The notes under the pieces were generated by a model, which saw only the letters and a program-made list of their open reading frames with translations, was not told the origin of the DNA and made no database searches. A program made the translations under genes and the position numbers. A DNA stretch of 24,000 nucleotides from NCBI GenBank assembly GCA_026398135.1, contig JAPLTN010000073.1, positions 18,043 to 42,042 on the forward strand, given 5' to 3'. Below, piece after piece: positions 1,137 to 24,000 of the stretch. Source of the stretch: Verrucomicrobiota bacterium. Lineage in GTDB: Bacteria > Verrucomicrobiota > Verrucomicrobiia > Opitutales > Opitutaceae. Numbering within the stretch: the first letter of the stretch is position 1; each line of letters opens with the position of its first letter.

Positions 1137-1138
1137 CC

Positions 1139-2401: not shown

Positions 2402-2463
2402 GGAGCACTCCCCGCCGCTTCCGCCACCGCCCCAGCCGTTACCCGTTTACCCTTACCCCACCC

Positions 2464-3867: not shown

Positions 3868-3907
3868 TCGCTCTTTCCCACTCCCGTTCCACTCCATTTA
3901 GTAAATT

Positions 3908-5956: not shown

Positions 5957-6547
5957 GCCTAAATCCGGCAGCAGGAATTAACCACCGATTGCAGAGAGAG
6001 TACGGATAAAGGCAGTTACTGATCAGATATCCATGAATGAATAATCACCCGAAGGGTGAGCATAGTGAGTTCTATAATGCCTTGATAATACGTGTCTATC
6101 TGTGGAATCCGTGGTTCAACTGCTTTTTCCAGGTATAATACCGCCCCCAGCCAATGATACTATAATCCAAAGTGATCTGCTTTATTTTAATAAAACGACC
6201 GCACCTGGCTCCGATTTCCGCCAAATCATAACAAGCAAACAAAAACCACATGATTAATACTATTTCGCATTCTGTAATATAAAATCTCATTATCTCCCGT
6301 AGGGCGTTCGCTCGCGAATGCCGTGCCGTGCGATATGCGTCGGGCGAGCGCGGACGTCGGCGAGCGACGTCCCTACAATCGGAATCAGGCATCACTCCGT
6401 TTTTATACGTTTGAAAGCGAAAGGGTATCAGGCTGCCCGTGCTTCATGAACCCCAATCAACCGCCGTCAGCAAAGCGGCAGGCCGCACTCGCCGCATCGC
6501 CCACTCCATACGTTGGGCTCCAGTGTTACACCGGGCATCACGGCGCG

Positions 6548-7663
6548 TCACCTATCCAGCACGCTTGAAAGCAGCGGTGCGGAGCGGCCAAAGCGGGTCC
6601 GATACTCGGCCAGCGTGGGCACTAAGCGCACCTTCACCTTGGCCTCGTGATTAAGCGCAATGCTGGAAAGCGCGTGGTTAAGAAACGGATTCCGAAATCG
6701 ATCCAGCGTAGCGCGCGCGAAGGCCTCGGCCTCCGGCGCACGCTCGGCAATAACCGGCACGATCTCCTCGGCCAAAACCCGCTCCAGCCAGGGACCGACC
6801 TCGGGGTGCTCGACACACTCACGGACGGTTTTTAGGCCCATGGGCATTGCGTGCGCCACCAGCGCGGTATGCGCGCCGTTGAGGATTCTCACTTTGCGCA
6901 GATAATACGGCGCGAGATCGGAAGTAAGCGTGACCGCCGGATGTTTAAAAAACGGTTGATCCCCCTGCACCTCCACGCCCCAAAAGGCGAAGGGCTCGGC
7001 ACTGAGCAGCAGGGGGTCGGTGTCCTTTAATGGATGCGTTTCCGGCGGGCCGGGCACGATACGGTCAACGAGATTGTCCACCCAGCGGCAGGCTTCCCGC
7101 AACCAGCTTTGGGCGGCGGAAGAAACGCTCCAACGCACGGCCTGGGTGAGCACCAATTCGCGGAGTTTTTGACCATTTTTCTCGATCAATTCGCAGGGCA
7201 CAATGGCGGGGGCGGGCAGTCCGGCGGCATGACGGGCGAGCAACACGTCGAGTAATTTGGCCGGAAACGAATGCGGCGTTTGCCCGCAGCCCGGCGGGAG
7301 TGGGCCGTCACGATCGTCCAGGGCGAAACCGGCCTCGGTGGTGTTGGACAAGATCCAGCGCAAGTCGGGCGAACAGGCGACCTCGCGCACCTCGCTCCAC
7401 TGGGTGCCCGCGTGCAAGGCGCGTGAAATCGAATCCACCGTTTCGACTTCATTCACGACCTGACCTGCGGCGTAACCTTGGATGGCTACGTGGTAGCGAC
7501 CGGCGGCGGCGTTGAGCGCATCGGCGCGAGCGCGGTCGGTGGACTGCACCACCACGATCCGACCGATACAAGTGGCCGGATCACGGTTCGCCTGGGCGAT
7601 GAATAAATCGGCAAAGGCTCGCAGGAAATTACCGGCGCCGAATTGGAGGATGGTTTCAGACAT
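6548..7663 (-). CDS. uxaB: Mannitol-dehydrogenase-family oxidoreductase, tagaturonate reductase (altronate oxidoreductase)-like
   Basis: The N-terminus ILQFGAGNFLRAFADLFI matches the UxaB/UxuB Rossmann start (E. coli IIQFGEGNFLRAFVDW). It lies directly downstream of uxaA on the same strand. At 371 aa it is shorter than E. coli UxaB. Confidence 0.7.
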   Translation of the reverse strand: MSETILQFGAGNFLRAFADLFIAQANRDPATCIGRIVVVQSTDRARADALNAAAGRYHVAIQGYAAGQVVNEVETVDSISRALHAGTQWSEVREVACSPDLRWILSNTTEAGFALDDRDGPLPPGCGQTPHSFPAKLLDVLLARHAAGLPAPAIVPCELIEKNGQKLRELVLTQAVRWSVSSAAQSWLREACRWVDNLVDRIVPGPPETHPLKDTDPLLLSAEPFAFWGVEVQGDQPFFKHPAVTLTSDLAPYYLRKVRILNGAHTALVAHAMPMGLKTVRECVEHPEVGPWLERVLAEEIVPVIAERAPEAEAFARATLDRFRNPFLNHALSSIALNHEAKVKVRLVPTLAEYRTRFGRSAPLLSSVLDR

Positions 7664-7726
7664 GGTCAGATGGGGCGAGTGGGCGGAGGTTTAAAATAGC
7701 GGAAATATCGCGAGGGCAGCCCTCCG

Positions 7727-9253
7727 TCAGAGCGTCACGCCATCCTTCCAGATGGCGATTTCGCGGTGGCCCCGGGTCTCGTTGCGGGTGCGTTGACGGC
7801 CGGAAGCATAGTCGAGAATCTGCTGCCAGAGTGCGTCGCTGAGCTGGTCGAAATCGGCCGTGCCGTCGGCGATGGGACCGGCGTTGAAGTCGATCCAATG
7901 CGGTTTTCGCGTGGCGAGATCGGTGTTGCTGGAGATTTTCACCGTGGGCACGGGGAAGCCCATCGGGTTGCCGCGCCCGGTGGTGAACAAGATCAGGTGC
8001 GCACCGGCCACGGTCATGGCGGTGCCGGACACACCGTCGTTGCCCGGTCCTTGCACGAGGGCGAGTCCGCCGAGGCCGGGTTTTGCGGGCGTTCCATAGG
8101 GAAGAACTTGGGCGACAGGGGCTTGTCCGCCTTTCTGCACGCAGCCGAGGGACTTGTCGGCGAGGGTGGTGATGCCGCCGTCCTTGTTTCCCGGAGACGG
8201 ATTTTCGTCGATGGGCTCGTTGTGCTTTCGGAAATAGGCGCGGAAGTCGTTAACCAGATTCACGACGCCGGTGAACGCCGTTTCGTCCACCGTGCGTTCC
8301 AACAGCATGCGTTCGGCCCCGAACATTTCCGGCACCTCGGTGAGCAGCACGGTGCCACCGGCGGCGGCGTGGCGGTCGGCAATGCGGCCGACCAAGGGAT
8401 TGGCGGTTATGCCGCTAAACCCATCCGAACCGCCGCACTTCATGCCGAGAATAAGCTCGGAGACAGGAATGGGCTGGCGCTTGAAACCGCGGACATAAGC
8501 GGCGAGTTCGCGCACGGCGGCCAGCCCGGACTCGATCTCATCCGAGACCTGTTGCGCGTTAAACCAGCGGATGCGTTCCGAGGCTTGCGGACCGAGCAGG
8601 GCCAAAAAGGCCTTCATCTGGTTGTTTTCGCAACCGAGGCCGAGCACCAGCACGGCGGCCGCGTTGGGGTGGCGGGCGAGGCCGGCCAGGACCTTCTGGG
8701 TGTAGCCAAGATCATCGCCCAGTTGCGAACAGCCAAAGGGGTGGGGAAAAGCATGCACGCCGTCGATGCCTGACCCCGGTGCAGCCAGTTCGGCATGGGC
8801 GGCGGCGGCGATTTTTTCCGAAGCCACGTTCACGCACCCGACGGTGTTGACGATCCAGATTTCGTTGCGAGTCGCGGCGCGGCCGTCCGGGCGACGATAG
8901 CCATCGAAAGTGGCGGTAGGACGCTGGCCAGCAGCGGCGGGGCGTTGACCGGTACGGGCCACCTCCGAAAAACGAAGGGTTTCCAGCGTCTCGGGGAGAT
9001 TTCCCCGGACATTATGCGTATGGACATGAGCACCGGCAGGGATGGCGGTGGAAGCAACGCCGATGGCATAACCGTATTTCTTTACGACGGATCCTGCCTC
9101 GATGCGGGCCAGCGCGACCTTGTGGCCGGCCGGGATGGCTTCCACGACTCGAACCCCGAGACACTCGGCGCCGACCTCGGCCGGACGGAGGGCGACGGCT
9201 ACGTTATCCTCGGGGTGAATACGGAGAAATCCGAAAGCGGGTGTTGAACTCAT
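7727..9253 (-). CDS. uxaA: Altronate dehydratase (altronate hydrolase)
   Basis: 508 aa, the typical UxaA length. It has a SAF-like N-terminus (LRIHPEDNVAVALRP...IPAGHKVAL), a conserved core (GMKCGGSDGFSGITANP) and a C-terminal GD_AH_C-like end (LILFTTGRGNPMGFPVPT). Confidence 0.9.
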   Translation of the reverse strand: MSSTPAFGFLRIHPEDNVAVALRPAEVGAECLGVRVVEAIPAGHKVALARIEAGSVVKKYGYAIGVASTAIPAGAHVHTHNVRGNLPETLETLRFSEVARTGQRPAAAGQRPTATFDGYRRPDGRAATRNEIWIVNTVGCVNVASEKIAAAAHAELAAPGSGIDGVHAFPHPFGCSQLGDDLGYTQKVLAGLARHPNAAAVLVLGLGCENNQMKAFLALLGPQASERIRWFNAQQVSDEIESGLAAVRELAAYVRGFKRQPIPVSELILGMKCGGSDGFSGITANPLVGRIADRHAAAGGTVLLTEVPEMFGAERMLLERTVDETAFTGVVNLVNDFRAYFRKHNEPIDENPSPGNKDGGITTLADKSLGCVQKGGQAPVAQVLPYGTPAKPGLGGLALVQGPGNDGVSGTAMTVAGAHLILFTTGRGNPMGFPVPTVKISSNTDLATRKPHWIDFNAGPIADGTADFDQLSDALWQQILDYASGRQRTRNETRGHREIAIWKDGVTL

Positions 9254-9317
9254 GCAGCCAGATATAGGGGGCGCGGCTGATCGACTGAAGGATTTTAGGA
9301 TAGCTGAAGACCTCGCA

Positions 9318-10163
9318 ATGACCCAAACTGCTTGTTCGATGTCGAAACTGCCCCATGCGATTGTTCGTCCCCCTGCCGGTCGTCCCTGCTGGGTGAGTCA
9401 CGGCAACCTGCCTCTTTTGTATCTTGGCTGGGGCAAGCGGGATTTCCATAAATCACCTTTGCCCAGGCACTGCGACGCGGGGACCAGTTTTTATCTACTG
9501 ACCAAGGGCGAGGCGCTCCTGGCGACGGCGAAAGGGGAACAGAGAATCATCGCGCCCTGCGCTTGTTTAATTGACCGGGACTGCATGTTTGGAATCTCAA
9601 ACAAGCGCGCCACCGGAGTTGAAATCCTGGTGTGGGTCTGGCGCGACGCGCCGGGTTCCGACTCGCTTACTCCATTGGCCGGAGACCTGAGTGTGCGGCC
9701 ACTTCGTTCGGAATCCTTGCCCAGATTGATCGAACTCCATCAGCAATGCCGCGACGAGGTCGCCCGTAATGAACCCGACGTTTCAGTCACGCTTTCGGCG
9801 CTACGCACCTTGGTCGAAGTGGAGCTGCTTCGTGCCGGACGCGCGCCCGAGAACGAAGACCGCCGCCTCTGGCAGCGGGTAAGCGACTGGATTAGCGCGA
9901 ATTTATCCATTCACGCTCCGATCCCTGCCCTGTGCGATTACCTGCGAGTTTCGCCCAGCACCCTGACCCGTTTTTTCAAAAAGCACACGAAGCAGTCTCC
10001 CGGCGTGTATTTCCGAAAAATGAAACAACAGGAAGCGCTGCGCTTGATCCAAAGCGAGGGATGGTCGGTCAAGGCAGCCGCATTCCACTTAGGTTATCGT
10101 CATGCCACGGATCTGAGCCGAGCTTTGGCAAAGGCAGCACCCCCGCCACCGGGTCTTACCTAA
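9318..10163 (+). CDS. AraC-family transcriptional regulator
   Basis: C-terminal double HTH: IPALCDYLRVSPSTLTRFFKKHTKQSPGVYFRKMKQQEALRLIQSEGWSVKAAAFHLGYRHATDLSRALAK. The ORF-track start at 9252 would overlap the divergent uxaA start, so an internal ATG at 9318 (or 9339) is preferred. Confidence 0.85.
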   Translation: MTQTACSMSKLPHAIVRPPAGRPCWVSHGNLPLLYLGWGKRDFHKSPLPRHCDAGTSFYLLTKGEALLATAKGEQRIIAPCACLIDRDCMFGISNKRATGVEILVWVWRDAPGSDSLTPLAGDLSVRPLRSESLPRLIELHQQCRDEVARNEPDVSVTLSALRTLVEVELLRAGRAPENEDRRLWQRVSDWISANLSIHAPIPALCDYLRVSPSTLTRFFKKHTKQSPGVYFRKMKQQEALRLIQSEGWSVKAAAFHLGYRHATDLSRALAKAAPPPPGLT

Positions 10164-10305
10164 TTCTACTTTGTTAAAAACGAAAAATGGCCGCAAAAAA
10201 GTCGCAGAAGTCACAAAAATGAAGGCTTGTTTTTGCGCTTTTTGAGCCTTTTTGCGGCATTCGCGGGTGTTTCCGTCGTAATGTTTCCGAATTAACAAAG
10301 TAGAA
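10164..10305. repeat. 142-bp imperfect palindromic element with perfect 14-bp terminal inverted repeats (TTCTACTTTGTTAA ... TTAACAAAGTAGAA)
   Basis: The left inverted repeat is 10164-10177 and the right is 10292-10305. The interior is A-rich on the left and T-rich on the right, with internal complementary blocks (aatggccgcaaaaa / tttttgcggcatt; aaggct / agcctt). It is bounded exactly by the araC stop TAA (10161-10163) and the rpoZ stop (10306-10308, minus strand). Confidence 0.7.
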
Positions 10306-10524
10306 CTAGCGCTGGGCCAGCTCTTCCGCCGTAGGCAGCCGGTAGCTGATTTTGCCCTCAATGATCTCGCGCAAGGCGACATCCTCGGGAGCCAGTTTTT
10401 CCAGCGAAACAACCAGGGGACGCGCTCCCGCCCGCAGTTGCTTCACGCGGCGCGAAACCACGTTCACCAAGATATTCGGATCGGTAATCAACCGCCGGGC
10501 GTTTTGCAGATAATCGTCTCTCAT
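10306..10524 (-). CDS. rpoZ: DNA-directed RNA polymerase subunit omega
   Basis: 72 aa. NILVNVVSRRVKQLRAGARPLV...EDVALREIIEGKI parallels E. coli omega ([22 protein letters not shown]...VIALREIEEGLI). Confidence 0.75.
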   Translation of the reverse strand: MRDDYLQNARRLITDPNILVNVVSRRVKQLRAGARPLVVSLEKLAPEDVALREIIEGKISYRLPTAEELAQR

Positions 10525-10729
10525 GGTTGGGTGGCTAACAGGGTGGAAAAGTTCATGGGCTTAGGCAGAACGTGAATGATATAAATGCTTAAAAAATAAC
10601 GCGATACCTATTAAATATTCACCCGAGTTAAGGGCAATCCGCTCGCCCGCCAGCGCCTTGCGCATCCCCGTTCCTTCAGATCCGTCACCCAAATACGCTC
10701 ACCCCACGTCGCCACCGGCTGACCTAGGC

Positions 10730-11512
10730 TCAGCCGCGTGCCCGGCGCAGCGCGATCACCGCCTCGCGCAGCTCCTCCGCCAAGGCCTTTCGTTCTCCCG
10801 CCGCGCCCCGCACGCAGCCCCAGGCCACATGCGCGCGCACCCAGGGCACGGTGGTCAGATTCGTCAGATGCGGGCCCAACTCCATGGCGCCCCACCAAGC
10901 GATTTCCTCGGCCACCGACACCCCCGCCGCCGCCGTATAATCCAACGCCACCGGCACCACCGGCCACCCCGCCGTGATCGCCGGCTCCAGCAACGCCGAC
11001 TTAAACCGCCCCACCCCGCCGCCATCGGTCGAGGTGCCCTCAAGAAAAACCGCCACATTCACCCCCGCCCGCAGCGCCGCCGCCATTTCCGCGCCCACCC
11101 GCGCCGCATCCCGCACCCGTCCCCGATCAATAAACAAGGTCCCCGCCCGCCGCGCCAAGCCGCCGAAAACCGGCCAGCCCGCCACCTCCTTTTTCGCCAC
11201 AAACACCGTCGGAGCCAGCGCGCCCAAAACCAACACATCCAGGTAACTCAGGTGGTTGGCCACGATCAGAGCCCCCTGCTTCGGCGGAGTGCCTGTGGTC
11301 TCCAGATTAATCCCCAACACCCGCAAGAGCCGCGCGCACAAGCCCTGCAAACCCCGCGCCCGGTCGGCCAATCCCGCCTCCCCCGCCAAGCCGCCGAGCA
11401 CCACCCCGCCCGCCCACGCGCCGCCCAGGACCAGCCCGAGGGCCAGGCCCCGCCCCGCCCCCCGTCCGTAATCCGTGATCGTTCGCCTGCGCATTTCCCC
11501 ACCCCGCATCAC
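10730..11512 (-). CDS. Lysophospholipid/lyso-aminolipid O-acyltransferase (PlsC/OlsA-like)
   Basis: Contains the HX4D motif in LIVANHLSYLDVLVL, plus FLEGTSTDGG (the FPEGT-type block) and an N-terminal hydrophobic anchor. The start lies in GTGATG (11512-11507) and overlaps the upstream stop TGA 11511-11509. Confidence 0.8.
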   Translation of the reverse strand: MMRGGEMRRRTITDYGRGAGRGLALGLVLGGAWAGGVVLGGLAGEAGLADRARGLQGLCARLLRVLGINLETTGTPPKQGALIVANHLSYLDVLVLGALAPTVFVAKKEVAGWPVFGGLARRAGTLFIDRGRVRDAARVGAEMAAALRAGVNVAVFLEGTSTDGGGVGRFKSALLEPAITAGWPVVPVALDYTAAAGVSVAEEIAWWGAMELGPHLTNLTTVPWVRAHVAWGCVRGAAGERKALAEELREAVIALRRARG

Positions 11513-12321
11513 GCGAGGTATTTACGCAAGACCCGCTCCGGCACCGCCTGCAAATCGAGCCAGGTCAAAAAATCCACCGTGCCAAACTCCCGGTCCAGCG
11601 CCGGCGCCCCGCAGAGTTTCGCCCCGAGCGCCAGATACGCCCCCAGCAATCTCGGTATTTTCACCTGTCCAAAGCCGGTTAACCGTCTCGTTTTTCGCTC
11701 ATTTACACCCTCTTCCACTCCCGCCTCGTCGCAGCTCCAACCCGCCAGCGGCACCGTGCGCCAGCGCGGCTCCACCCAATGCCGCTCGGCCAACACCGCC
11801 CAAGCCTCGCGCCCTTCCGACGCCTCCCGCGAGGTCAAGGAACTGCACCCGGTCAGATAACGCGCGCCTCGCTCCGCCGCATACTCCGCAATTCCGCGCC
11901 AGAGCAGCGCCAGCACCGTCTGGTTGCGATGCTCCCGGTCCACGCAGGCCCGCCCCAGCTCCACCAACTCGCCCCGCACCGGCTCGAAGGGCGCGAAATC
12001 AAATTCCCGCGCCGAGTAGTAACCCAGCCCGCTCGCCGCCGCCCTCGCGCCGGTCTGCAAACGATAGGTTCCCACCACCCTTCGCTCCGACCGCGTTTCC
12101 ACCAGCAAGTGATCGCACACCGCATCAAACTCGTCCGCATCCCGCCCGCTCGCCACCGAACGCGCCAGCCCTTCCGCCAGCTCCAGGTTAAACACTTCAA
12201 ACCGCAAACGCTGCGCCGCCGCCACGTCCGCCTCCGTGCCCGCCAGCCGCAGGCGATACGCCCCGGTTTCCCGCGTCGCCGCCAAGGTATTCCGTTTTCC
12301 CGTGCTCAGATGTATTTTCAT
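11509..12321 (-). CDS. GNAT-fold N-acyltransferase, OlsB-like (aminolipid N-acyl amino acid synthase family)
   Basis: AAQRLRFEVFNLELAEGL...GRDADEFDAVCDHLLV follows the pattern of S. meliloti OlsB (AAQRLRYRVFVEEM...DFDAWDSVCDHLLV). Its ATG forms an ATGA overlap (12318-12321) with the upstream gene's stop. Confidence 0.8.
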   Translation of the reverse strand: MKIHLSTGKRNTLAATRETGAYRLRLAGTEADVAAAQRLRFEVFNLELAEGLARSVASGRDADEFDAVCDHLLVETRSERRVVGTYRLQTGARAAASGLGYYSAREFDFAPFEPVRGELVELGRACVDREHRNQTVLALLWRGIAEYAAERGARYLTGCSSLTSREASEGREAWAVLAERHWVEPRWRTVPLAGWSCDEAGVEEGVNERKTRRLTGFGQVKIPRLLGAYLALGAKLCGAPALDREFGTVDFLTWLDLQAVPERVLRKYLA

Positions 12322-13967
12322 CGCGCGCCCTCCGCTTTGCGCCCCGACGCCCGCACCAGCTCGCGCACCTCGCGCCAGCTCCAGACCCGCGCCCCGCGCG
12401 CCCGATTCGCCGCCCCGATCTCATAGGCCAGCCGCCACTGCCGGCACAGCATCCGCCAGCCAAACCAGACCGAATGCCTCGGATCATAGATGCTCGTCGC
12501 CTCCGAGCTCAGTCCATTCAGCTCGATCACGGTAAACTCCCCGCGTTGCAACGCCTCCGCCGACGCTGTGCGCACATCGTAACGCCCGAAACAAAATCCT
12601 TCAAAAGTCGCACTCACCGCCTCGACCGCCGCCTCCAGCGCGGGCGTGCGCCAGCCCTCCCCATCCAAAAACAACGCCCCCCGGCAATGCGTGCCCAGCT
12701 CGGCCAACACCACCGCCACCCCCGCCGCCGGCATTTCCCCCAAGCGCGCGCCATAGGTATTAAGAAAAAACTTCGCCATGCCCACCGCCCGGTCGTCACC
12801 GAGAATCAGTTCCTCCAGCGTCCGCCGCCCGTCCCCCGTCACACGCAACACCCGTTTGTCCGTGATCGCGAACAGCTCGCCCCGCGCCGCCGCCGGGTGC
12901 CGCGTGTAAAACAACCCAAACTCCACCCCCGGCACATAGGCCTGCGCGATCAGCCGCGCCGGATCCGCGGCCACTTTCTCCCCCACCTCGGCCACGCTGC
13001 GCGCAATAACCACGCCCGTGCCGCGTTCGCCCACATCGGGTTTCAACACCACCGGCCACGCCGTCGGCAAACCGGCCTGAAACGCCGCCACCGCCTCCGC
13101 CCGCGTATCCGCCGCGCCGGGCTCGATCACCGTCCATGTCGCCACCCGTTCGCCCGCGCCCGCCAGGCCGCGCAAAATTTCGCTCTTCGATTCCCCCACC
13201 AGCCCGCCACCCGCGCCGATCCCCGGATTCGCCGCCGTGCAGACCGTCCACCCGCCGTGCCGCCAGCCCAGCCATAGCACGTAAATCACCACCGGCGGAT
13301 ACACCGCCCAGCTCGGCCAGTATTCCCAATGCGTAAGCCGCCGTAGCCGCGAAACCCAGAGTCGCCGCCCGCGCCAGCTCGCCAGACTTTGCCCCAGTCG
13401 CAGCCCCGCCCAAGCCAGCAAAGCCGCCGCCGCAAGCCCGGCCGACCACTGCCGCCAACCGGCCAGATCCGTCACCACCGCCTCGCCCAAGCTCCAGCTC
13501 AAGCCCACCACCAGGGGAGCCCACACCGCCACCGCCGCCGCGAACCACAGCGCCAGCCGTCCCCACGGAGCGCGCAAGACCCCCGCCGCCAGATAAAGCG
13601 GCAAACGCGTACCCGGCACGAAGCGACTGATAAAAATCGCCCGCCCTCCGCGTTGCGCGAACCACGCCTCCGCCCGCGCCAGCCCCTCCGCCGACACCCG
13701 CCCGCGCAAGGGCCAGCGTTGCAAAGCCGCCCGCCCCAGCCCCCGGCCCACCGCGACCAGGATCAGATCACCGGCCACGATGCCGGTAAAACACGCCAGC
13801 GTCGCCGCCCAGAAATCCAGCCGCCCCGCCGCCACCAGCAACCCGCCCGCCACGCAGGCCAGATCATCGCTGGCAAATGTCGCCAGGGCCAAGGCCAGCA
13901 GCACCCAGGCCGTCCCGCCCCAGGCCGCCGCATTCGCCACCCACTCCAGGACTGTCGCCGGGCTCAC
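12318..13967 (-). CDS. Fusion protein: N-terminal DedA/VTT (SNARE-associated) membrane domain + extra TM helices + C-terminal ATP-grasp ligase domain
   Basis: The DedA signature is GDLILVAVGRGLG...FISRFVPGTRLPLYLAAG. Further hydrophobic helices follow (YWPSWAVYPPVVIYVLWLGW). ATP-grasp blocks are VVLKPDVGERGTGVVIARS, AQAYVPGVEFGLFY and VIELNGLSSEATSIYDP. The start is reassigned to GTG 13967, which forms GTGA with the NRDE stop. The ORF-track start at 14084 would overlap the NRDE gene by 121 nt. Confidence 0.75.
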   Translation of the reverse strand: MSPATVLEWVANAAAWGGTAWVLLALALATFASDDLACVAGGLLVAAGRLDFWAATLACFTGIVAGDLILVAVGRGLGRAALQRWPLRGRVSAEGLARAEAWFAQRGGRAIFISRFVPGTRLPLYLAAGVLRAPWGRLALWFAAAVAVWAPLVVGLSWSLGEAVVTDLAGWRQWSAGLAAAALLAWAGLRLGQSLASWRGRRLWVSRLRRLTHWEYWPSWAVYPPVVIYVLWLGWRHGGWTVCTAANPGIGAGGGLVGESKSEILRGLAGAGERVATWTVIEPGAADTRAEAVAAFQAGLPTAWPVVLKPDVGERGTGVVIARSVAEVGEKVAADPARLIAQAYVPGVEFGLFYTRHPAAARGELFAITDKRVLRVTGDGRRTLEELILGDDRAVGMAKFFLNTYGARLGEMPAAGVAVVLAELGTHCRGALFLDGEGWRTPALEAAVEAVSATFEGFCFGRYDVRTASAEALQRGEFTVIELNGLSSEATSIYDPRHSVWFGWRMLCRQWRLAYEIGAANRARGARVWSWREVRELVRASGRKAEGAR

Positions 13968-14695
13968 CAACCCGCCTCCGTGACCGCGCCCCGCCCATCG
14001 GGACGGCTCCAATCCACCACACGATAAACCAGCTTTGGCTCCTCGCCGGCCCGCACCCGCACCCGGCACACGCTGCGCGTGCACGCATCCGCCCGGCTCA
14101 TCCGCACCGACTCCGCCCCCCGCTCCGGATCATGCCGCCAATGCAACGCCTCCGCCGTTTGCGCGGTCAGGCCCGCCCGCACCGCCTCCGCGTAACGCGC
14201 CTCCCGCGCCACCCTGATCTGGCTCGACGCATACGACGACGAGGTCGCAAAGCCCGCCCCGGCCCAGTCGCGCCATTCCGCCCCGTTCCAATGCAATCCT
14301 CCGCTCCGTCCGCGTGCATCCACCGCCACGGTCAAAAACGGCCCGAAATTCGCCGCGCCCGAGCGCTCCACCCAAACCCGCATTGCGCGCAGGGCCTCCC
14401 CGGCATCCGAAGCGTCCATGCCCGCCAGCGGCACGCCGCCCCGGCTCATTTTACCCCCCGCTCCGCCGCCGGTTTCGTAATCGTTGAGTAACCCCACGCT
14501 CAGCCCGGCGCGGTTCAAAGCCAGCCAAGTTCCGCCCCGCGCCCCATCGCGTGGAGCCACATACTCCATACCCGCCGCCGTCACCGCCGTCCCCGGGGCG
14601 AATTCCGGCGCGCGCGTGCGCTGCTCGTCGCGATTAAACCACAAATCATAACCGCCGCCCGACTCGGGCGCGGGCAAAATACTCACGGTGCACAT
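13964..14695 (-). CDS. NRDE/TANGO2-family protein (Ntn-hydrolase-like, Cys2)
   Basis: The N-terminus MCTVSILPAPESGGGYDLWFNRDEQRTRAP contains the family's eponymous NRDE motif and a Cys directly after the initiator Met. It is 243 aa. Confidence 0.8.
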   Translation of the reverse strand: MCTVSILPAPESGGGYDLWFNRDEQRTRAPEFAPGTAVTAAGMEYVAPRDGARGGTWLALNRAGLSVGLLNDYETGGGAGGKMSRGGVPLAGMDASDAGEALRAMRVWVERSGAANFGPFLTVAVDARGRSGGLHWNGAEWRDWAGAGFATSSSYASSQIRVAREARYAEAVRAGLTAQTAEALHWRHDPERGAESVRMSRADACTRSVCRVRVRAGEEPKLVYRVVDWSRPDGRGAVTEAGW

Positions 14696-14781: not shown

Positions 14782-15321
14782 TTATCCCCCGCAACGGCGA
14801 AACCGCAGGGTGGATGGCGCCACTCCGAAATCCACCGGCGTCGGTTTGCCGCCGAGCGCGCACACCACCGCGATCAAGGCATAATGGTGAATCGTGTGAC
14901 TGAGCAAAAACTCCAGCTCACGCCCCACGCTCGATGGATTGAGAACCGCGGCATCCTCCCGCCCCACCATCTCGGATCGCACCTCCACGGTGCTCTCCAG
15001 AAAATCGTCGGCCAGCGCCGACAGCTCTTCGCGCAGCTGCTCCAGGCGTATCACCGCATACGCAGGCTCGTTTTCAATCCGCGCATCGCGCGCCCTCGCC
15101 TCGTAATCCACCACCCCGGTGCGCCGCGCCTGCAGGAAGCTCTCATAGTGCTCGATCACGTGGCGCAGATGCCCGCCGATGGAGCTGTTAAAACACGCCG
15201 GTTCGCGCCGCACGTAAGCCGCCTCGCCCAGCGCCGCCAGTAAATCGCGCCCCTGCGCCAAGGCTTCCAGATTGTCGCGCACCGCCAGATCGAGATGCGG
15301 TGATTTAAGTAAGGATGTCAT
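14782..15321 (-). CDS. DinB-superfamily (DinB_2-like) metal-dependent protein
   Basis: Histidine-rich helix motifs HLRHVIEHYESF and LLSHTIHHYALI are typical of the DinB four-helix-bundle family. The start is moved to ATG 15321, which forms an ATGA overlap with the YHS gene stop. The longer ORF-track form (15387) would overlap that gene. Confidence 0.6.
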   Translation of the reverse strand: MTSLLKSPHLDLAVRDNLEALAQGRDLLAALGEAAYVRREPACFNSSIGGHLRHVIEHYESFLQARRTGVVDYEARARDARIENEPAYAVIRLEQLREELSALADDFLESTVEVRSEMVGREDAAVLNPSSVGRELEFLLSHTIHHYALIAVVCALGGKPTPVDFGVAPSTLRFRRCGG

Positions 15322-15772: not shown

Positions 15773-16177
15773 TCAGAGTTTAGCGCCGATGATGGGTAAG
15801 GCCCGGCGATGCAGCCAGATCACCCCGGCGGAGGCCGCCCACGTGATCAGCGCCAGCGCGAAGAGCAAACCGCCGTCGCCCTGCACCGCGATTCCGAGTT
15901 TCGTCAGGTGGAAAAAAATCGCCCCGCTCATCGTGCCCAGCGCCAGCAACGCGCCCAAGGGCGTCGTCGCCGGCACCCACAAGAGCACGCACGCGATCAG
16001 CTCCACCACGCCCGAACCGATGCGGCCGGCCGGCTCCTGCCCGACCTGCTCAAAGATATAGACGGACTCCGGCGCGCCGGAGAATTTAAAGAACAGGGTT
16101 TGTCCCAGGATGATGGTCGCGGTGAGACGCAGCGCCCGGCTGAGCCAGCGGTATTGAGTGAGGTTCGTTTCGTTCAT
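15773..16177 (-). CDS. DoxX-family small integral membrane protein
   Basis: 134 aa with four hydrophobic segments. The pattern GQTLFFKFSGAPESVYIFEQVG...GVVELIACVLLWVP...MSGAIFFHL is DoxX-like. Confidence 0.65.
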   Translation of the reverse strand: MNETNLTQYRWLSRALRLTATIILGQTLFFKFSGAPESVYIFEQVGQEPAGRIGSGVVELIACVLLWVPATTPLGALLALGTMSGAIFFHLTKLGIAVQGDGGLLFALALITWAASAGVIWLHRRALPIIGAKL

Positions 16178-16234
16178 GCGCGGGTAAGAGTCGTCCTCGC
16201 CGGGTTTATTCCCGGCGATTTTTAGCGCACCGTT

Positions 16235-16984
16235 TTAGAGCACCGCATGCAGCGCATCCATGCCCGCATCCGACACCATCACGTAGGCGAGCCGGGCGTC
16301 CGCCCAAGTGACGGCGGCCAGGTTACCTTCTTCGCGAAACCGGGGTTTCACATCAAAACCCGCACCACCGAAATCATCCCGTCGTGCAATGTAGAGATGC
16401 ATCTCGCCCACGCCTTCGCGCACGAAACACACCTCCAGCAACTCGCGTCCCGCGATGGTCACGGTGCGGCAGCCGCCCGCCTTGAGTGCCGCGAAATCCA
16501 GCGGCAGTCCCGCCGCCAAACGGAAGCGCGCATCGGCCAGAATGGTCTTCAAGGCACCCCGTCCGCCCAGGGCCAGCGGCGCGTGTTCCGGCGAACTCAT
16601 CTCCGCCATCACCCCCAGAGCCAATTGCTCCGCACCGGGGCCGGATCGCAGGCCGTTCCAAAACACACCGAGACCAAAAACCAGCGTCAGGCTCGCCGCC
16701 AGCGCGAGGGCTCGGCCGGTTTGCCACCACGGCGTGGAGCGCTGCATTCTCGCGCCGGCCAGAATGGCGTCGCGCAGACCGGGCGGCGGCCCCACTTCGC
16801 GCAAACGCTCCGCCACCGCCGAATCGAAGGCCTGTTCCCGCGCCAGCCAGCCGGTCAAAACCGGATCGCGCGCGGCCTGGGCCAGCGCCTCGGAAAAGGG
16901 CGCTTGCGCATCATCGCGCCCATCGGGACGCCGCGCCTGCAGGATGAATTTTGCCTCGTTGGTATTCATGATGTTTTTCGCCAT
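16235..16984 (-). CDS. Membrane anti-sigma factor (single TM, periplasmic C-terminal domain)
   Basis: It immediately follows and overlaps the ECF sigma gene. The N-terminal cytoplasmic region is followed by one TM segment (ALALAASLTLVFGLGVFW). An alternative start at ATG 16969 forms an ATGA overlap with the sigma stop (16966-16969). Confidence 0.6.
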   Translation of the reverse strand: MAKNIMNTNEAKFILQARRPDGRDDAQAPFSEALAQAARDPVLTGWLAREQAFDSAVAERLREVGPPPGLRDAILAGARMQRSTPWWQTGRALALAASLTLVFGLGVFWNGLRSGPGAEQLALGVMAEMSSPEHAPLALGGRGALKTILADARFRLAAGLPLDFAALKAGGCRTVTIAGRELLEVCFVREGVGEMHLYIARRDDFGGAGFDVKPRFREEGNLAAVTWADARLAYVMVSDAGMDALHAVL

Positions 16985-17526
16985 TCCCGTCCCTCTTGGT
17001 TTAAAAACGGAATCACTTTGCGTTCCTCCGCCCCCGCCAGCCGCCCCAGTGCGGCGCGCAACTGCGCCTTCCCGCGCGAAAGCCGCGACATCACCGTGCC
17101 GACCGGCACCTCCAGGAGCGCCGCGATCTCCTGGTAGGCCATTTCCTCCAGATAAAACAGGGTGAGCGCCGCCCGGAATCCTTCGTCCACTTCCTGCAAG
17201 GCCTGCACCACCAGCTTGGCGTCGAATTTCAGATCGAGATTTTCCGCCTCGTCCGCCGGATCCTGTTCACCGGGCGGCAAATCCTCCAACGCCGTCACCC
17301 TCGCCCCGCGCCGCCGCCCGCGCAGAAACTCGCGGTAGAGGGTGGTAAACAGCCACGTCTTCGCCTTGGCAATTTCGCGCAACGACTGCCCCTTCGTCGC
17401 CCACACGTAGAAGGTCTGCTGCACCAAGTCGCACGCATCGGCTTCGCTGCGCGCCAAACTGAGCGCGAAACGATACAGGGCCGCGTAATGCGCATCGACC
17501 AAGCGGTTAAAAAGTTCATCTGCCAT
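16966..17526 (-). CDS. ECF-type RNA polymerase sigma-70 family factor
   Basis: Region 2 reads YAALYRFALSLARSEADACDLVQQTFYVW. Region 4 HTH reads FYLEEMAYQEIAALLEVPVGTVMSRLSRGKAQLR. The start is taken at ATG 17526 (MADELF...); the track start at 17556 is the alternative. Confidence 0.9.
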   Translation of the reverse strand: MADELFNRLVDAHYAALYRFALSLARSEADACDLVQQTFYVWATKGQSLREIAKAKTWLFTTLYREFLRGRRRGARVTALEDLPPGEQDPADEAENLDLKFDAKLVVQALQEVDEGFRAALTLFYLEEMAYQEIAALLEVPVGTVMSRLSRGKAQLRAALGRLAGAEERKVIPFLNQEGREWRKTS

Positions 17527-17739
17527 TGCAGGCAAGAGATACGAACCGCCCCGCATATTCCCGTTAAATACGATAATTCATCAAAACGTCACGTATCGGA
17601 GCGTTTTCAGCGGCGGCAAAAACGAACATCCGCTCGCTGTGCAGCCGTTCTTTCCGAGTTCTTGCCGCTCCTTCTGCGCATGCACCTCCGCGTTTTTCCT
17701 TCCGCCGCCGCCCGCGCCCGCCACAGTGGCCGTTTCCGC

Positions 17740-20196
17740 ATGCTGCGCCTCCTGCTCCCGCCCAATCTTCCCGCCGCCGCCATCCGCGACGCCATCCCGG
17801 TCAAAGTCGAGTTCGACCCCGCCACCCCGCCCCCGCCCGCGCAACTGCCCGCCCTCGCCCTGCTCTCCCGTATCTGCGGCGGAGCCCCCACCCCGCCGCC
17901 CTTCGTCCAGCTCACCCGCACCCAGCTCCGCGAACTGGTCGCCGCCCTCTCCGGCCAGCCCGTCTTCGCCGCCATCGCCGAACCCGCCAAAAGCCTGCTC
18001 TGGCTCGGCCCCCGCCTGCGCGGCGTCAGCGAACACCTCACCGCCGCCACGCCGCTGCCCGCCACCCCGCCCCCGCCCGCCGCCTCCGCCGGTCCGCGCT
18101 CCCTCTCAATGCGCACGCCCCGCATCGTGCCGCGCGACGAACCCGTCACCCCTATGCAAGTGGACGGCAGCGAACACTTCCTCGCCATCTCCCTGCCCTC
18201 CCGCGAAGCCCCCGCCTACGCCGCCGCCCGCGAACTGCTCTCCGCCCAGGGCTTCGCCCTCGATCCATCCTCCAAAAAGTGGTGGCTGCGCGACCGCCAC
18301 AAGGTGCTCAACTTCCTCGCCCAGCACGGCGACACCCTGCGTTCCCGCTTCCACGCCGACTTCACCCCCAACTTCGACAAAAACGCCGCCCTGCTCGCCA
18401 CCGCCGAGGTCGAGACCAAGGTCACCGACGCCGGCAATGGCGAATTCTCCGTCACCGTCGGCCTCGCCGCCGGCAAGGTCACCGAAGAGGACCTGCGCAA
18501 CGCCCTCGCCACCGGCCGTCGCTTCGTCGAGGACGGGAAAAAAATCTACCTCCTCCCGCCCGAGCAAATCGAACGCCTCGCCAAGGCCCAGGCCGCGCTC
18601 GCCGGCGGCACCGCCGCGCCGGTCGTGGCCCGCAAGGTCCAGCGTGTCACCGCCGCCCGGATACCCGAGCTCCAGGAAATGCTCGACGAGCTCTCGCCCG
18701 ATTACCAGCCGCCCGCCGCCTGGCGCCGTCGCGCCGAGGCCCTGCGCGACCTCGAAAAACTGGAGGCCGCCCCCCTGCCCCCTACCTTCGCCGCCACCCT
18801 TCGCCCCTACCAACACATCGGCGTCGCCTGGCTCTGGCACCTCCACCGCCACGATCTCGGCGGCATCCTCGCCGACGAAATGGGCCTGGGCAAAACCGCC
18901 CAGGCCATCGCCCTGCTCTCCGCCATCGCCCACGCCGCGCCGGAGAAAAAACGCCAGCCATCCCTCGTCGTCTGCCCCGCCTCCCTGGTCGAAAACTGGC
19001 GGCGCGAGGCCGCCCGTTTCGCCCCCGCCCTGCGCGTCTTCGTGCACCACGGCAGCAACCGCCTGCCCTCCGTCGCCGCCGCCAGCGACTACGATATGTT
19101 TATCACCTCCTACGGCACCCTCGGCCGCGACTCGGAGCTGTTTTCCGAGATCGACCTCGCCACCCTGATCGCCGACGAAGCCCAGCACGCCAAAAACCGC
19201 CGCTCGCTCAACGCCCGCGCCCTGCGCTCCCTCCACGCCCGCAGCCGTCTCCTCCTCACCGGCACCCCGGTGGAAAACTCCCTCGAAGACCTGCGCACCC
19301 TCTTCGAGATCGTGCTCCCCGGCTACGTGGACGCCAAACTGCCCGCCTCCGCCGGTTCCGGGGTCAAGACCACCGACCGCGACTGGCAGGACGAACGCCT
19401 CCGCCGCCAGACCGCACCCTACATTCTGCGCCGCACCAAGTCCGCCGTCGCCACCGAGCTCCCGCCCAAGATCGAGCAGGTCATCCACTGCACGCCCACC
19501 AGCGAACAGCTCTCGCTCTACAACGAATACCAGCGCAAATCCGAGGACCAACTCAACGCCCTCGCCGCCGACGGCGCTTCGGAAAACTCCCAGCGCATGG
19601 CCACCCTCACCCAGCTCCTCCGCCTGCGCCAGATCTGCTGCGATCCGCGCCTGGTCGAGCAAATGGCCGAGGCCTCCTCGTCGTCCAAACTCGAAGCCTT
19701 CCGCGAACTGCTCGCCGAAGCGGTGGACGACGGCCACCGCCTGCTCGTGTTTTCCCAGTTCACCAGCCTGCTCGGCCTCCTCCGCGACGAGTTGGACAAA
19801 CAGGAACTCACCTACTGCTACCTCGACGGCTCCACTCCGCAAAAACAACGCCAGGCCGAGGTGGACCGTTACAACACATCGCCCGACATCCCCGTTTTCC
19901 TCATCTCGCTCAAGGCGGGCGGCACCGGCCTCAACCTTACCGGCGCGGACACGGTGGTGCACTTCGACCCGTGGTGGAACCCCGCCGCCGAGGCCCAGGC
20001 CACGGATCGAGCGCATCGCATCGGCCAGACCAAAGTCGTGACCAGCTACAAGCTGATCTGCACCGGCACGGTGGAGGAAAAGGTCATGATGCTGCAGGAC
20101 GAAAAACGCCGCCTCCTGGCCGACGTCTTCGAAGCCAGCGACGCCGTAAACGCCAAACTCACCCTCGCCGACCTGCGCAGCCTGCTGGTGGGTTAG
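17740..20196 (+). CDS. SNF2-family (RapA/HepA-like) DEAD/DEAH-box helicase with long Pro/Ala-rich N-terminal region
   Basis: Helicase motifs: ILADEMGLGKT (I), IADEAQHAKN (II, DEAQ), LLLTGTPVEN (III), and C-terminal LISLKAGGTGLNLTGADTVVHFDPWWNPAAEAQATDRAHRIGQ (V/VI). The track ORF starts at 17488, inside the divergent sigma gene, so ATG 17740 (or 17680) is preferred. Confidence 0.9.
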   Translation: MLRLLLPPNLPAAAIRDAIPVKVEFDPATPPPPAQLPALALLSRICGGAPTPPPFVQLTRTQLRELVAALSGQPVFAAIAEPAKSLLWLGPRLRGVSEHLTAATPLPATPPPPAASAGPRSLSMRTPRIVPRDEPVTPMQVDGSEHFLAISLPSREAPAYAAARELLSAQGFALDPSSKKWWLRDRHKVLNFLAQHGDTLRSRFHADFTPNFDKNAALLATAEVETKVTDAGNGEFSVTVGLAAGKVTEEDLRNALATGRRFVEDGKKIYLLPPEQIERLAKAQAALAGGTAAPVVARKVQRVTAARIPELQEMLDELSPDYQPPAAWRRRAEALRDLEKLEAAPLPPTFAATLRPYQHIGVAWLWHLHRHDLGGILADEMGLGKTAQAIALLSAIAHAAPEKKRQPSLVVCPASLVENWRREAARFAPALRVFVHHGSNRLPSVAAASDYDMFITSYGTLGRDSELFSEIDLATLIADEAQHAKNRRSLNARALRSLHARSRLLLTGTPVENSLEDLRTLFEIVLPGYVDAKLPASAGSGVKTTDRDWQDERLRRQTAPYILRRTKSAVATELPPKIEQVIHCTPTSEQLSLYNEYQRKSEDQLNALAADGASENSQRMATLTQLLRLRQICCDPRLVEQMAEASSSSKLEAFRELLAEAVDDGHRLLVFSQFTSLLGLLRDELDKQELTYCYLDGSTPQKQRQAEVDRYNTSPDIPVFLISLKAGGTGLNLTGADTVVHFDPWWNPAAEAQATDRAHRIGQTKVVTSYKLICTGTVEEKVMMLQDEKRRLLADVFEASDAVNAKLTLADLRSLLVG

Positions 20197-21204: not shown

Positions 21205-21447
21205 ATGATCAAAACCCAAGTTCAGATCCCCGATCATCTTTACCACGAGGCCAAGCGTGTCGCCGACGATTACGAGATGAGCTTCGCCGAAGTTGTCCGC
21301 CGCGGCCTTGAACGCGTGACCGCCGAGTTCCCGCGTCGCGCCCGCCCTGGCGCATGGTCCCCGCCCGCACCCGAAAACCTTGGCTGCTACCCGCTCTCCG
21401 CCGCCGAACTTAAAGCCGCCGCCCAAGACAACGAACCAAGCCTTTAA
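21205..21447 (+). CDS. Type II antitoxin, ribbon-helix-helix (CopG/VapB-like)
   Basis: 80 aa. MIKTQVQIPDHLYHEAKRVADDYEMSFAEVVRRGLERV reads as beta-strand, helix, helix. It lies immediately upstream of a PIN gene. Confidence 0.65.
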   Translation: MIKTQVQIPDHLYHEAKRVADDYEMSFAEVVRRGLERVTAEFPRRARPGAWSPPAPENLGCYPLSAAELKAAAQDNEPSL

Positions 21448-21481
21448 TCGCGCCTCCTTACCCTCGCCTCCCACGCGGCCC

Positions 21482-21922
21482 ATGCTCTCCCTCGATACCA
21501 ACCTGCTCTTCTACGCCTTCGCCGCCGACCGCCCCGAGCACGCCGCCGCGCTAGCCTGGCTTACCCCACTGCACGCCTCCGCCGACATCGTTCTCTCCGA
21601 GTTCGTCCTCGTGGAATTCTACCGGCTACTGTGCAACCCCACCGTCTCCCGCCAGCCCAAATCCGCCGCCGCCGCCGCCGCGATCATCCAGAACTACCGC
21701 GCCCACCCCGCCTGGCGCATCCTTGGTTTTACCCGCGACAGCACCGCCCTTCACGACGAACTCTGGATCCACGCCGCCGCCCCGCAGTTTGCCTACCGCC
21801 GCATCTGCGACGCCCGCCTCGCCCTCACCCTCCGCCACCACGGCGTCACCGAGTTCGCCACCGCCAACGTCAAAGACTTCGAGGGCTTCGGGTTCACCCG
21901 CGTCTGGAACCCCTTGGCATAG
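21482..21922 (+). CDS. vapC: PIN-domain toxin, VapC family
   Basis: MLSLDTNLLFYAF is the LDTN-type first acidic residue. Other blocks are VLSEFVLVEFYRLL and CDARLALTLRHHGVTEFATANVKDFEGF. The track ORF (21380) extends upstream into the antitoxin gene, so ATG 21482 is preferred. Confidence 0.8.
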   Translation: MLSLDTNLLFYAFAADRPEHAAALAWLTPLHASADIVLSEFVLVEFYRLLCNPTVSRQPKSAAAAAAIIQNYRAHPAWRILGFTRDSTALHDELWIHAAAPQFAYRRICDARLALTLRHHGVTEFATANVKDFEGFGFTRVWNPLA

Positions 21923-23664: not shown

Positions 23665-23713
23665 GGGTGAAACGTCGCCCGTTAGCGCATAAAAGATCAA
23701 CTCTCTAAACTCG

Positions 23714-23925: not shown

Positions 23926-23934
23926 ATCGGATGG

Positions 23935-23960
23935 GCTCACGGGGATTGCGCCCCGTGAGC
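23935..23960. other. Perfect 10-bp stem hairpin (gctcacgggg-attgcg-ccccgtgagc)
   Basis: The two arms are exact reverse complements with a 6-nt loop. It lies directly after REP cluster B and is unrelated in sequence to the TTGGCCG stems. Confidence 0.5.
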
Positions 23961-24000
23961 CTTCCACACCACCGGACGTGCGGTTTTCCGCATCCGGCGG

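Follow-up and report, generated by a model that had tools for sequence, protein, structure and literature searches.

A 24-kb stretch of DNA from a Verrucomicrobiota bacterium of the family Opitutaceae (24,000 nucleotides of contig JAPLTN010000073.1, part of a metagenome-assembled genome and referred to here as the window) harbors a probable aminolipid locus whose set of partner enzymes is new. Aminolipids are a major kind of phosphorus-free membrane lipid, and the locus encodes relatives of the acyltransferases OlsB and OlsA together with a protein in which a DedA-type membrane domain is fused to an ATP-grasp ligase (DedA::ATP-grasp), a member of the NRDE/TANGO2 family, and proteins of the DinB, YHS and DoxX families. 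It is likely that this module is functionally tied to aminolipid metabolism, and its probable task, judging from the domains that it encodes, is the synthesis or remodeling of a new head group for a membrane lipid. The genes form a same-strand array of seven, or nine counting the regulators, in the order extracytoplasmic function (ECF) sigma factor, anti-sigma factor, DoxX, YHS, DinB, NRDE, DedA::ATP-grasp, OlsB-like and OlsA-like (Table 1). An initial annotation of the sequence had taken the last four of these genes as the unit, which proved too narrow, as they are the distal part of an array that has DoxX, YHS and DinB on the same strand upstream as well as the sigma/anti-sigma pair.

Evidence for a unit comes from the conservation of the neighborhood. 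Open reading frames (ORFs) were called in 81 related loci and searched with hidden Markov models (HMMs) built from the module proteins. The counts given here refer to the 47 loci with at least 4 kb of upstream and at least 3 kb of downstream sequence, and a partner is a gene within 6 kb. The partner found most often near the ligase gene is DinB (41/47 loci), followed by NRDE (33/47), an aminolipid synthase (31/47), DoxX (21/47) and YHS (10/47); two loci lack all three of DinB, NRDE and a synthase. The synthases are OlsBA-type in 27 cases and OlsF-type in four, with the OlsF-type ORFs scoring 380-430 bits on the NCBIfam OlsF model. Unbiased clustering of the neighbor genes returned the same top families as the HMM search. 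The linkage of NRDE and the fusion gene to OlsB/OlsA-type genes, which the initial annotation had proposed and suggested checking in other genomes, is therefore kept across many phyla. Moreover, the OlsB-like protein, a GNAT-family enzyme, falls within the OlsB family, and on both points that are open to computation the proposal stands. The part that does not stand is the limit of four genes: DinB is a commoner partner than NRDE, and DoxX and YHS recur.

The module is carried by at least ten bacterial phyla, including Verrucomicrobiota, Acidobacteriota, Gemmatimonadota, Calditrichota and KSB1, with further carriers among the Planctomycetota, Desulfobacterota, Gammaproteobacteria, Bacteroidota (Rhodothermaceae) and Spirochaetota. 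The gene order varies. DoxX-YHS-DinB-NRDE-fusion-GNAT-PlsC is the arrangement of the Opitutaceae, GNAT-PlsC-DinB-NRDE-fusion is found in Acidobacteriota, Gemmatimonadota, Calditrichota and Gammaproteobacteria, and the fusion gene is followed by OlsF in Verrucomicrobiales and Desulfobacteraceae. Split forms also exist: in two loci (L088 and L089) DedA, of about 204 aa, NRDE and ATP-grasp are three adjacent genes, and in the split-form clusters L088-L090 DoxX is the first gene. Stand-alone ATP-grasp ligases are 360-420 aa long. When six distant homologs of either NRDE or the stand-alone ligase were examined by an independent look-up, all six lay within the same module. That two distinct synthase architectures were recruited, and that fusion and fission occurred repeatedly, argues strongly that the genes constitute one functional unit, and the presence of two evolutionarily distinct synthase types beside the same core points to function rather than inheritance. 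The simplest alternative, an ordinary olsBA operon that happens to lie beside unrelated genes, with overlaps incidental to a compact genome, is extremely improbable. Four-base overlaps are indeed common in bacterial operons, but the same partners recur in 45 of the 47 loci, in many phyla, in varied orders and in both fused and split forms, and the probability that a single-copy synthase gene falls by chance within 6 kb is, by a rough estimate (about a dozen neighbors among several thousand genes), far below 1% per genome.

The fusion protein had been read in the initial annotation as a DedA/VTT membrane domain joined to an ATP-grasp ligase. The first half of this reading is borne out by Pfam (PF09335, VTT_dom, E 2.4e-12; 47.8 bits, cutoff 33.9); the domain is all-helical in the AlphaFold2 (AF2) model and has a conserved RF-P-G-x-R motif. 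The second half is upheld by fold and by profile, but not by a Pfam family: the C-terminal 353 residues (aa 197-549) gave no Pfam match even at E<=1, and in NCBIfam only weak matches to cyanophycin synthetase, at about 3e-4. The AF2 model (pLDDT 85) gave 260 Foldseek matches in the PDB at E<=0.001, and the 50 listed were all ATP-grasp enzymes, led by the ATP-grasp domains of the cyanophycin synthetases CphA1 and CphA2 (E 2e-8; CphA1 first, at 2.4e-8) and followed by GshF and D-Ala-D-Ala ligase (Ddl). A PDB search with a profile of stand-alone and fused members likewise found the cyanophycin synthetase G domain (4.7e-10), with an alignment limited to the G-domain region, chain residues 244-458 of 879. 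Invariant in 32 aligned sequences are K309, R462, D464 and E482-L483-N484; by likeness to Ddl, K309 would be the ATP-binding lysine and Glu-x-Asn the Mg-binding element, and the catalytic core looks intact. A hydrophobic segment beginning RWEFWP is conserved before the ATP-grasp domain, in the stand-alone proteins too, and suggests that the ligase itself associates with the membrane. The family is large, with 2252 matches in the first search, about 975 clusters at 50% identity and E<=1e-30, and relatives in at least 577 species-representative genomes. The names of the 240 best homologs are generic (DedA, VTT, alpha/beta hydrolase, RimK-like, hypothetical).

Cyanophycin synthetase (G domain), GshF and Ddl thus provide the closest folds and profiles, and have ATP- and Mg-binding residues in common with the module ligase. 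These enzymes convert an alpha-carboxylate into an acyl phosphate, to which an amine is then added. However, identity is only about 20%, and the N+G+M architecture of cyanophycin synthetase is not found in the 549-aa fusion protein, which lacks the CphA1 N and M domains and has an N-terminal DedA domain instead. The hydrophobic N-terminal segment and the membrane fusion are unique to the module ligase. In architecture, and in that respect only, the fusion resembles MprF, where a cytoplasmic head-group-modifying enzyme is fused to a membrane domain of the lipid-translocating type. There is no sequence relationship between the two, MprF uses aminoacyl-tRNA and its membrane domain is not DedA; a Pfam scan of the fusion protein returned VTT_dom alone, with no MprF flippase or lysyl-phosphatidylglycerol synthase domain.

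The DedA domain shares the VTT domain and the RF-P-G-x-R motif with the DedA transporters UptA, YqjA/YghB and TMEM41B/VMP1. The best NCBIfam match is UptA, the undecaprenyl-phosphate transporter, and this, together with the likeness of the ligase to Ddl, could suggest that the fusion protein modifies a polyprenyl-phosphate-linked envelope precursor, for instance by extending a lipid II-type stem peptide with an amino acid. We regard this as very unlikely, since the UptA score of 55.9 bits is far from the equivalog cutoff of 250, no peptidoglycan or polyprenyl genes recur in the neighbor clustering, and aminolipid synthases do recur near the fusion gene. The module domain also differs from these transporters in being fused to enzymes, an arrangement of DedA proteins for which we know of no earlier description.

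The two acyltransferases had been assigned to the OlsB and PlsC types, and both assignments are sound at the level of the family. The GNAT (MCX6937979.1, named merely 'GNAT family N-acetyltransferase' in NCBI) matches Pfam PF13444, Acetyltransf_5, with E 8.1e-30 (104 bits; cutoff 22.4) and NCBIfam OlsB with E 7e-41. The PlsC-type protein matches PF01553, Acyltransferase, with E 3.4e-26, and has the HX4D (NHLSYLD) and EGT (FLEGTST) motifs. The equivalog cutoffs of NCBIfam are not reached by either protein: the GNAT scores 140.6 bits against 350 for NF052554 and 136.6 bits against 320 for NF052555, and the best match of the OlsA-like protein, NF052552 (E 7e-39), is at 133.4 bits against 300. On these matches the two proteins are assigned to the OlsB and OlsA families, but the scores are too low to assign a function or the head-group amino acid.

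The closest characterized systems are OlsBA and OlsF, with the known modifiers OlsC, OlsD, OlsE and OlsG. The module shares with them an Acetyltransf_5 N-acyltransferase and an HX4D O-acyltransferase, or in other loci an OlsF-like fusion, of the type that makes acyloxyacyl aminolipids, with putative modifier genes in the same locus. Three routes of synthesis and five modifications of ornithine lipids are listed in a 2026 review of acyloxyacyl aminolipids (PMC12971839). ATP-grasp, DedA, NRDE, DinB, DoxX and YHS proteins appear in none of these (PMC12971839), which agrees with the earlier statement that the extra genes are part of no characterized Ols pathway. That statement had gone on to say that no assigned ligase was known for the amidated products. 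For taurine-ornithine lipid this is confirmed, the gene having been unknown since the 1970s, and the transfer of taurine to the carboxyl group of ornithine lipid is ATP-dependent (PMC12971839). This cerilipin-forming activity of Gluconobacter cerinus is therefore of the reaction type expected of an ATP-grasp ligase, but nothing in the present data ties the fusion family to Gluconobacter or to taurine. To our knowledge no ligase has been assigned to Ser-Gly or Orn-Ser-Gly head groups. Full-text literature searches returned no description of the module, no paper joining OlsB with DinB, NRDE or TANGO2, and none of relevance joining DedA with ATP-grasp, and no functional name for the module was found in the databases.

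The existence of Ser-Gly and Orn-Ser-Gly head groups (PMC12971839) raises the idea that the ATP-grasp enzyme acts first, forming a dipeptide or unusual amino acid conjugate that is then N-acylated by the OlsB-like enzyme to give a peptide head group. The distance of the GNAT from the OlsB cutoff means that its acceptor could be unusual. L-amino-acid ligases are also ATP-grasp enzymes. A ligase of soluble substrates would, however, have no evident need of a DedA fusion or of a hydrophobic N-terminal segment, and this order of events is considered distinctly unlikely.

The NRDE/TANGO2 assignment rests on Pfam TANGO2 (E 1e-5, 26.1 bits against a cutoff of 22.6), with a match to the N-terminal half only, and on a profile of 30 NRDE homologs that matches the human TANGO2 structures 9bwa and 8sv7 with E 1.6e-6. 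The NRDE motif and Cys2 noted in the initial annotation are both invariant in the 30 homologs, as M1-C2-T3 and N21-R22-D23-E24. The bacterial subfamily thus shares these motifs with human TANGO2, and differs in its length of about 245 aa and in aligning to the N-terminal half alone. In the bacterial contexts examined, NRDE stands beside DedA/ATP-grasp genes or, in Moritella, beside small ATP-grasp genes. Crystal structures of TANGO2 have an N-terminal nucleophile (Ntn) hydrolase fold, and acyl-CoA binding has been reported, with the function of the human protein unsettled between reports (PMC12359130, PMC11867700; for acyl-CoA binding, PMC11867700). Structural comparison groups the family with bile salt hydrolase, N-acylethanolamine acid amidase and isopenicillin N acyltransferase (PMC12359130). 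A role for NRDE as an acyl-amide hydrolase or transferase would fit.

Long forms of the fusion protein, with an extra N-terminal alpha/beta hydrolase, are found in 35 of the 47 loci and in most of the other phyla; in one locus (L087) the hydrolase is a separate adjacent gene. In all seven long forms read, the N-terminus has a basic stretch followed by a hydrophobic stretch, as in a signal anchor, with an A-x-A site in one of them. On account of this N-terminus the hydrolase domain is probably periplasmic, and since the ligase must be cytoplasmic the protein would work on both faces of the membrane. Such an arrangement could serve aminolipid salvage or repair, in which the hydrolase or an NRDE amidase makes a lyso- or deacylated aminolipid, DedA returns it to the inner leaflet, and the ATP-grasp enzyme religates a carboxylate with a hydroxyl or amine, as in VanA-type ester formation. 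The LplT-Aas salvage of lysophospholipids offers a parallel: a lipid transporter is coupled, and sometimes fused, to an ATP-dependent religating enzyme, and the substrates are made by hydrolases on the outer face, although the families concerned are different (an MFS transporter with an acyl-ACP synthetase/acyltransferase). Salvage would account for the predicted placing of domains on both sides of the membrane, for the frequency of hydrolase-type partners (NRDE and the alpha/beta hydrolase, as counted above) and for the linkage to ECF sigma factors, which suggests a stress or damage response, and the redox partners DoxX, YHS and a Rieske/ferric-reductase protein would suit the handling of oxidized lipids. 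Yet the nearest relatives of the ligase use amino-acid or peptide carboxylates, we know of no ATP-grasp enzyme that activates a long-chain fatty acid, and the fusion protein of the window lacks the hydrolase domain, with no alpha/beta hydrolase of the long-form type found when it was sought across the 24 kb. On balance salvage appears unlikely.

The DinB-family protein is matched by Pfam DinB (E 1.2e-9) and DinB_2 (E 5.6e-8), and its metal-binding histidines (H51, H54, H142, H145 and H146) are invariant. A search of the PDB with the DinB profile gave as its closest match only an unannotated 'DinB-like protein' (3dka, E 0.05). Among the module-associated DinB proteins a FGVAPST motif is invariant, and 14 of 22 carry Cys as the third residue from the end (CAQ, CAR or CVQ; CGG in the window, 14785-14793). 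The YHS gene exceeds the cutoff of NCBIfam NF041384 (E 5.5e-49) and is present also in the Moritella and L086 variants. A resemblance to ergothioneine synthesis (a ligase, the DinB-domain protein EgtB and the Cys2 Ntn amidase EgtC) was weighed and set aside, since the 179-aa DinB protein lacks an FGE-sulfatase domain and neither a methyltransferase nor a pyridoxal phosphate enzyme is present.

The module is not an obligatory appendage of olsBA, as 16 of the 47 loci have no synthase within 6 kb. The closest species-level relative in the genome collection, an Opitutaceae metagenome-assembled genome (L004, 11635-17913) whose fusion protein is 85% identical, keeps DoxX-YHS-DinB-NRDE-fusion and has no GNAT or PlsC downstream; in their place is an opposite-strand gene, which by its sequence motifs alone we take to be a sigma-54-dependent response regulator. 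The linkage to the synthase is therefore labile even within the family. In a Moritella sp. (L084, 5471-10915) the DinB-like and NRDE genes overlap, and the opposite strand carries YHS, DoxX, a pair of small ATP-grasp-like genes (290 and 302 aa) and the gene for a non-DedA polytopic membrane protein of 393 aa; there is no GNAT or PlsC nearby. The locus of the cultured Opitutaceae bacterium D2-102 (L073, 9818-13537) shows another variation, with a match to the ATP-grasp part only (query residues 198-543) followed by two tandem GNATs and a PlsC. The Moritella locus suggests that a DoxX-YHS-DinB-NRDE-ligase core can stand without an adjacent synthase.

The loci that lack a synthase, Moritella included, are an argument for seeing the core of DoxX, YHS, DinB, NRDE and ATP-grasp as an envelope redox or small-molecule system, concerned for example with a peptide-like or thiol compound, with the synthases merely co-regulated in a stress regulon. 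Characterized DinB-fold proteins are mostly thiol transferases or iron-dependent enzymes that form C-S bonds, the YHS family includes selenoproteins by its NCBIfam name, the ligase resembles the ATP-grasp domain of GshF, and the near-terminal Cys is conserved in many DinB members. Co-regulation alone is nevertheless a poor explanation for the fact that OlsBA and OlsF, which have unrelated architectures, share an operon with the core genes, and often overlap them, across some ten phyla. The ligase, moreover, is fused to or beside a membrane domain of a lipid-transporter family and has a conserved hydrophobic segment of its own. For these reasons a redox core independent of lipids is judged improbable.

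Head-group amidation coupled to translocation, possibly under stress regulation, is the most economical model, because the nearest ligases make an acyl phosphate of an amino-acid or peptide alpha-carboxylate and add an amine, an acyloxyacyl aminolipid presents such a carboxylate at the membrane surface, and the ligase is joined to a domain from a lipid-transporting family. We put this model at a little under an even chance: the genes, their domains and the conservation of the neighborhood are shown, whereas the chemistry is an inference. In it, the OlsB-like and OlsA-like enzymes would assemble an N-(3-acyloxyacyl) amino acid lipid on the cytoplasmic side of the inner membrane. The membrane-tethered ATP-grasp enzyme would then activate the head group at its free carboxylate and form an amide there with a soluble amine or amino acid; alternatively, it would join a soluble acid to a side-chain amine of the head group. 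The fused DedA domain could hold or translocate the lipid, in the manner of the flippase domain of MprF, and the NRDE protein, with its Ntn fold and Cys2, could act by cleavage or transfer on an acyl-amide bond in the lipid or in an intermediate. In other phyla the probably periplasmic alpha/beta hydrolase might work at the outer face, trimming or transacylating the lipid. DinB, DoxX and YHS would be involved in an unspecified metal- or redox-dependent step, and in the Opitutaceae the adjoining ECF sigma/anti-sigma pair may make expression responsive to envelope stress. That one hitherto unrecognized, possibly stress-regulated pathway across many phyla converts OlsBA- or OlsF-made acyloxyacyl aminolipids into a new class of head-group-extended lipids, amidated with an amino acid or amine by an ATP-grasp enzyme, with a DedA translocator and a TANGO2 homolog acting on an acyl-amide bond, is a more tentative proposition, and in this complete form a rather doubtful one.

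Several points weigh against the amidation model. The synthase-free loci include, besides L004, the cultured Cerasicoccus and several other Verrucomicrobiota, and the Moritella core of DinB-NRDE, DoxX-YHS and two small ATP-grasp genes is likewise without a synthase; in these genomes the synthase may lie elsewhere, or the substrate of the core may be wider than, or other than, an aminolipid. Both acyltransferases score well under the NCBIfam equivalog cutoffs for OlsB and OlsA. The charge distribution does not fix the path of the first re-entrant region of the DedA domain, and the roles assigned to DinB, DoxX and YHS are empty placeholders. A literature search for the lipidome of any module carrier found none. 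Finally, the known producers of peptide- or taurine-aminolipids (Bacteroides, Porphyromonas and Gluconobacter) are not among the best 80 genome loci, which is weak evidence.

Turning to the locus itself, the four minus-strand ORFs that had been described are all present, the fusion ORF extending in its longest form over 12318-14084, and the motifs quoted for them (MC..., WFNRDE, AAQRLRFEVF, DEFDAVCDHLLV, NHLSYLD and FLEGTSTDG) are found in the translations. The module region has a G+C content of 66-72% and contains numerous long spurious ORFs in other frames, so the length of an ORF proves nothing here; a 400-aa artefact ORF on the plus strand at 10658-11860 is one example. Between 11000 and 14000 the GC skew on the plus strand is very strong, at about -0.33, and the AT skew is positive across the module. 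On the basis of curated HMM matches and thousands of database homologs, the four ORFs are taken as genes and not chance ORFs.

Two of the three gene junctions are as the initial annotation described them. On the reverse strand, GTGA (13967-13964) contains both the NRDE stop TGA (13966-13964) and the GTG (13967-13965) that starts the 549-aa form of the fusion protein, which is the start annotated in a relative that is 95% identical, and ATGA (12321-12318) combines the fusion stop with the GNAT start. At the third junction the GNAT stop TGA (11511-11509) does lie within GTGATG (11512-11507), but the acyltransferase start that had been placed there is uncertain. In the 95%-identical locus (L001) the gene call begins the acyltransferase at the following ATG, which a Shine-Dalgarno-like GGAGGA precedes; the counterpart of this ATG in the window is at 11494-11492, 14 nt past the GNAT stop. 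The start could be GTG 11512, ATG 11509 or ATG 11494, the last being the more likely from this comparison; under each of them the two genes are tight, with either an overlap or a 14-nt spacing. Further upstream, ATGA overlaps join the YHS stop to the DinB start (15321-15318) and the ECF sigma stop to the anti-sigma start (16969-16966). The DinB and anti-sigma start positions were carried over to the window ORFs from the L001 gene calls.

Table 1. Features of the probable aminolipid module in the window (positions counted from the first nucleotide of the stretch)
Feature	Position	Strand	Basis
OlsA-like lyso-aminolipid O-acyltransferase (PlsC family)	10730..11512	-	Pfam, NCBIfam, HX4D and EGT motifs
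OlsB-like N-acyltransferase (GNAT, Acetyltransf_5)	11509..12321	-	Pfam, NCBIfam
ATP-grasp ligase domain, fusion aa 197-549	12318..13379	-	AF2/Foldseek, PDB profile, invariant residues
DedA/VTT membrane domain, fusion aa 1-196	13380..13967	-	Pfam VTT_dom; GTG start overlaps NRDE stop
NRDE/TANGO2-family protein, Ntn-hydrolase fold, putative nucleophile Cys2	13964..14695	-	Pfam TANGO2, PDB profile
DinB-family four-helix metalloprotein, 179 aa from ATG 15321	14782..15321	-	Pfam DinB, DinB_2
YHS-domain (seleno)protein family member, N-terminal signal-peptide-like segment	15318..15761	-	NCBIfam NF041384
DoxX-family small membrane protein	15773..16177	-	Pfam DoxX_2 and DoxX
GC-rich hairpin, 8-bp stem	16197..16218		Terminator-like-site scan; in the 57-nt gap between anti-sigma and DoxX genes
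Putative anti-sigma factor, 244 aa	16235..16969	-	Weak Pfam DUF3379, E 3e-4, below gathering score
ECF sigma-70 family factor, 186 aa from ATG 17526	16966..17526	-	Pfam Sigma70_r2, Sigma70_r4_2; start per L001 gene call

A same-strand ECF sigma/anti-sigma pair lies upstream of or within the module in eight Opitutaceae loci, and the two are always paired. This pair is a candidate regulator of the module in Opitutaceae and suggests control by stress. In Horticoccus and a relative (L006 and L010, about 4800-11550) the regulator pair lies inside the module, with DinB-NRDE upstream and DoxX-YHS-fusion-GNAT-PlsC downstream. ECF sigma genes of other types are found near the module in two further lineages. 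No sigma-70 promoter was found in a scan of the window, and visual inspection of the sequence ahead of both the sigma gene and DoxX revealed no convincing ECF-type promoter. The hairpin in front of DoxX has a T-run on the plus strand only, where no gene ends, and on the minus (coding) strand an A-run precedes it. It is a candidate attenuator or opposite-strand terminator; the window is not enriched in terminator-like sites over shuffled sequence. Scans of the 24 kb for Rfam families and tRNA genes gave no matches.

In 14 loci, mainly of Acidobacteriota, a membrane protein of about 360 aa is encoded upstream of the module. It combines a ferric-reductase-like (MsrQ-like) transmembrane domain with a Rieske 2Fe-2S domain (for example at 4792-5883 in L047), and in L086 (1926-3781) and L089 (1683-3535) it is followed by a protein of about 265 aa with no family match.

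The acyltransferase gene is followed by a 205-bp gap and then rpoZ. The downstream flank of the module (324-9253) encodes a short-chain dehydrogenase/reductase, a 420-aa protein without an assigned family, an MFS transporter, a GH30/GH59-like glycosidase, a member of the mannitol dehydrogenase family, an altronate dehydratase and a regulator of the AraC type; these are ordinary genes of sugar-acid catabolism and have no relation to the module. On the other side, an SNF2-family helicase gene (17488-20196, plus strand) is divergent from the ECF sigma gene, an arrangement kept in L001 and L002, both of them 95% identical. Beyond it are genes for a PIN-domain protein (21380-21922, plus), a transglutaminase-like protein (22026-23006, plus) and an IS200-like (Y1_Tnp) transposase (23200-23967, minus).

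The module represents a candidate enzyme family for aminolipid head-group ligation. If the fuller reading, of one amidating pathway across many phyla, is true, it would provide the missing enzyme class for ATP-dependent amidation of aminolipid head groups, and the first enzyme-coupled assignment of a substrate to a DedA protein; as the DedA domain is here fused to enzymes, it could show the cargo of at least one DedA subfamily. The module also places a TANGO2/NRDE homolog in a conserved operon with enzymes of N-acyl-amino-acid lipid synthesis. Loss of TANGO2 in humans leads to metabolic disease, and for the TANGO2/NRDE family this context would, if that fuller reading is true, constitute a functional lead.

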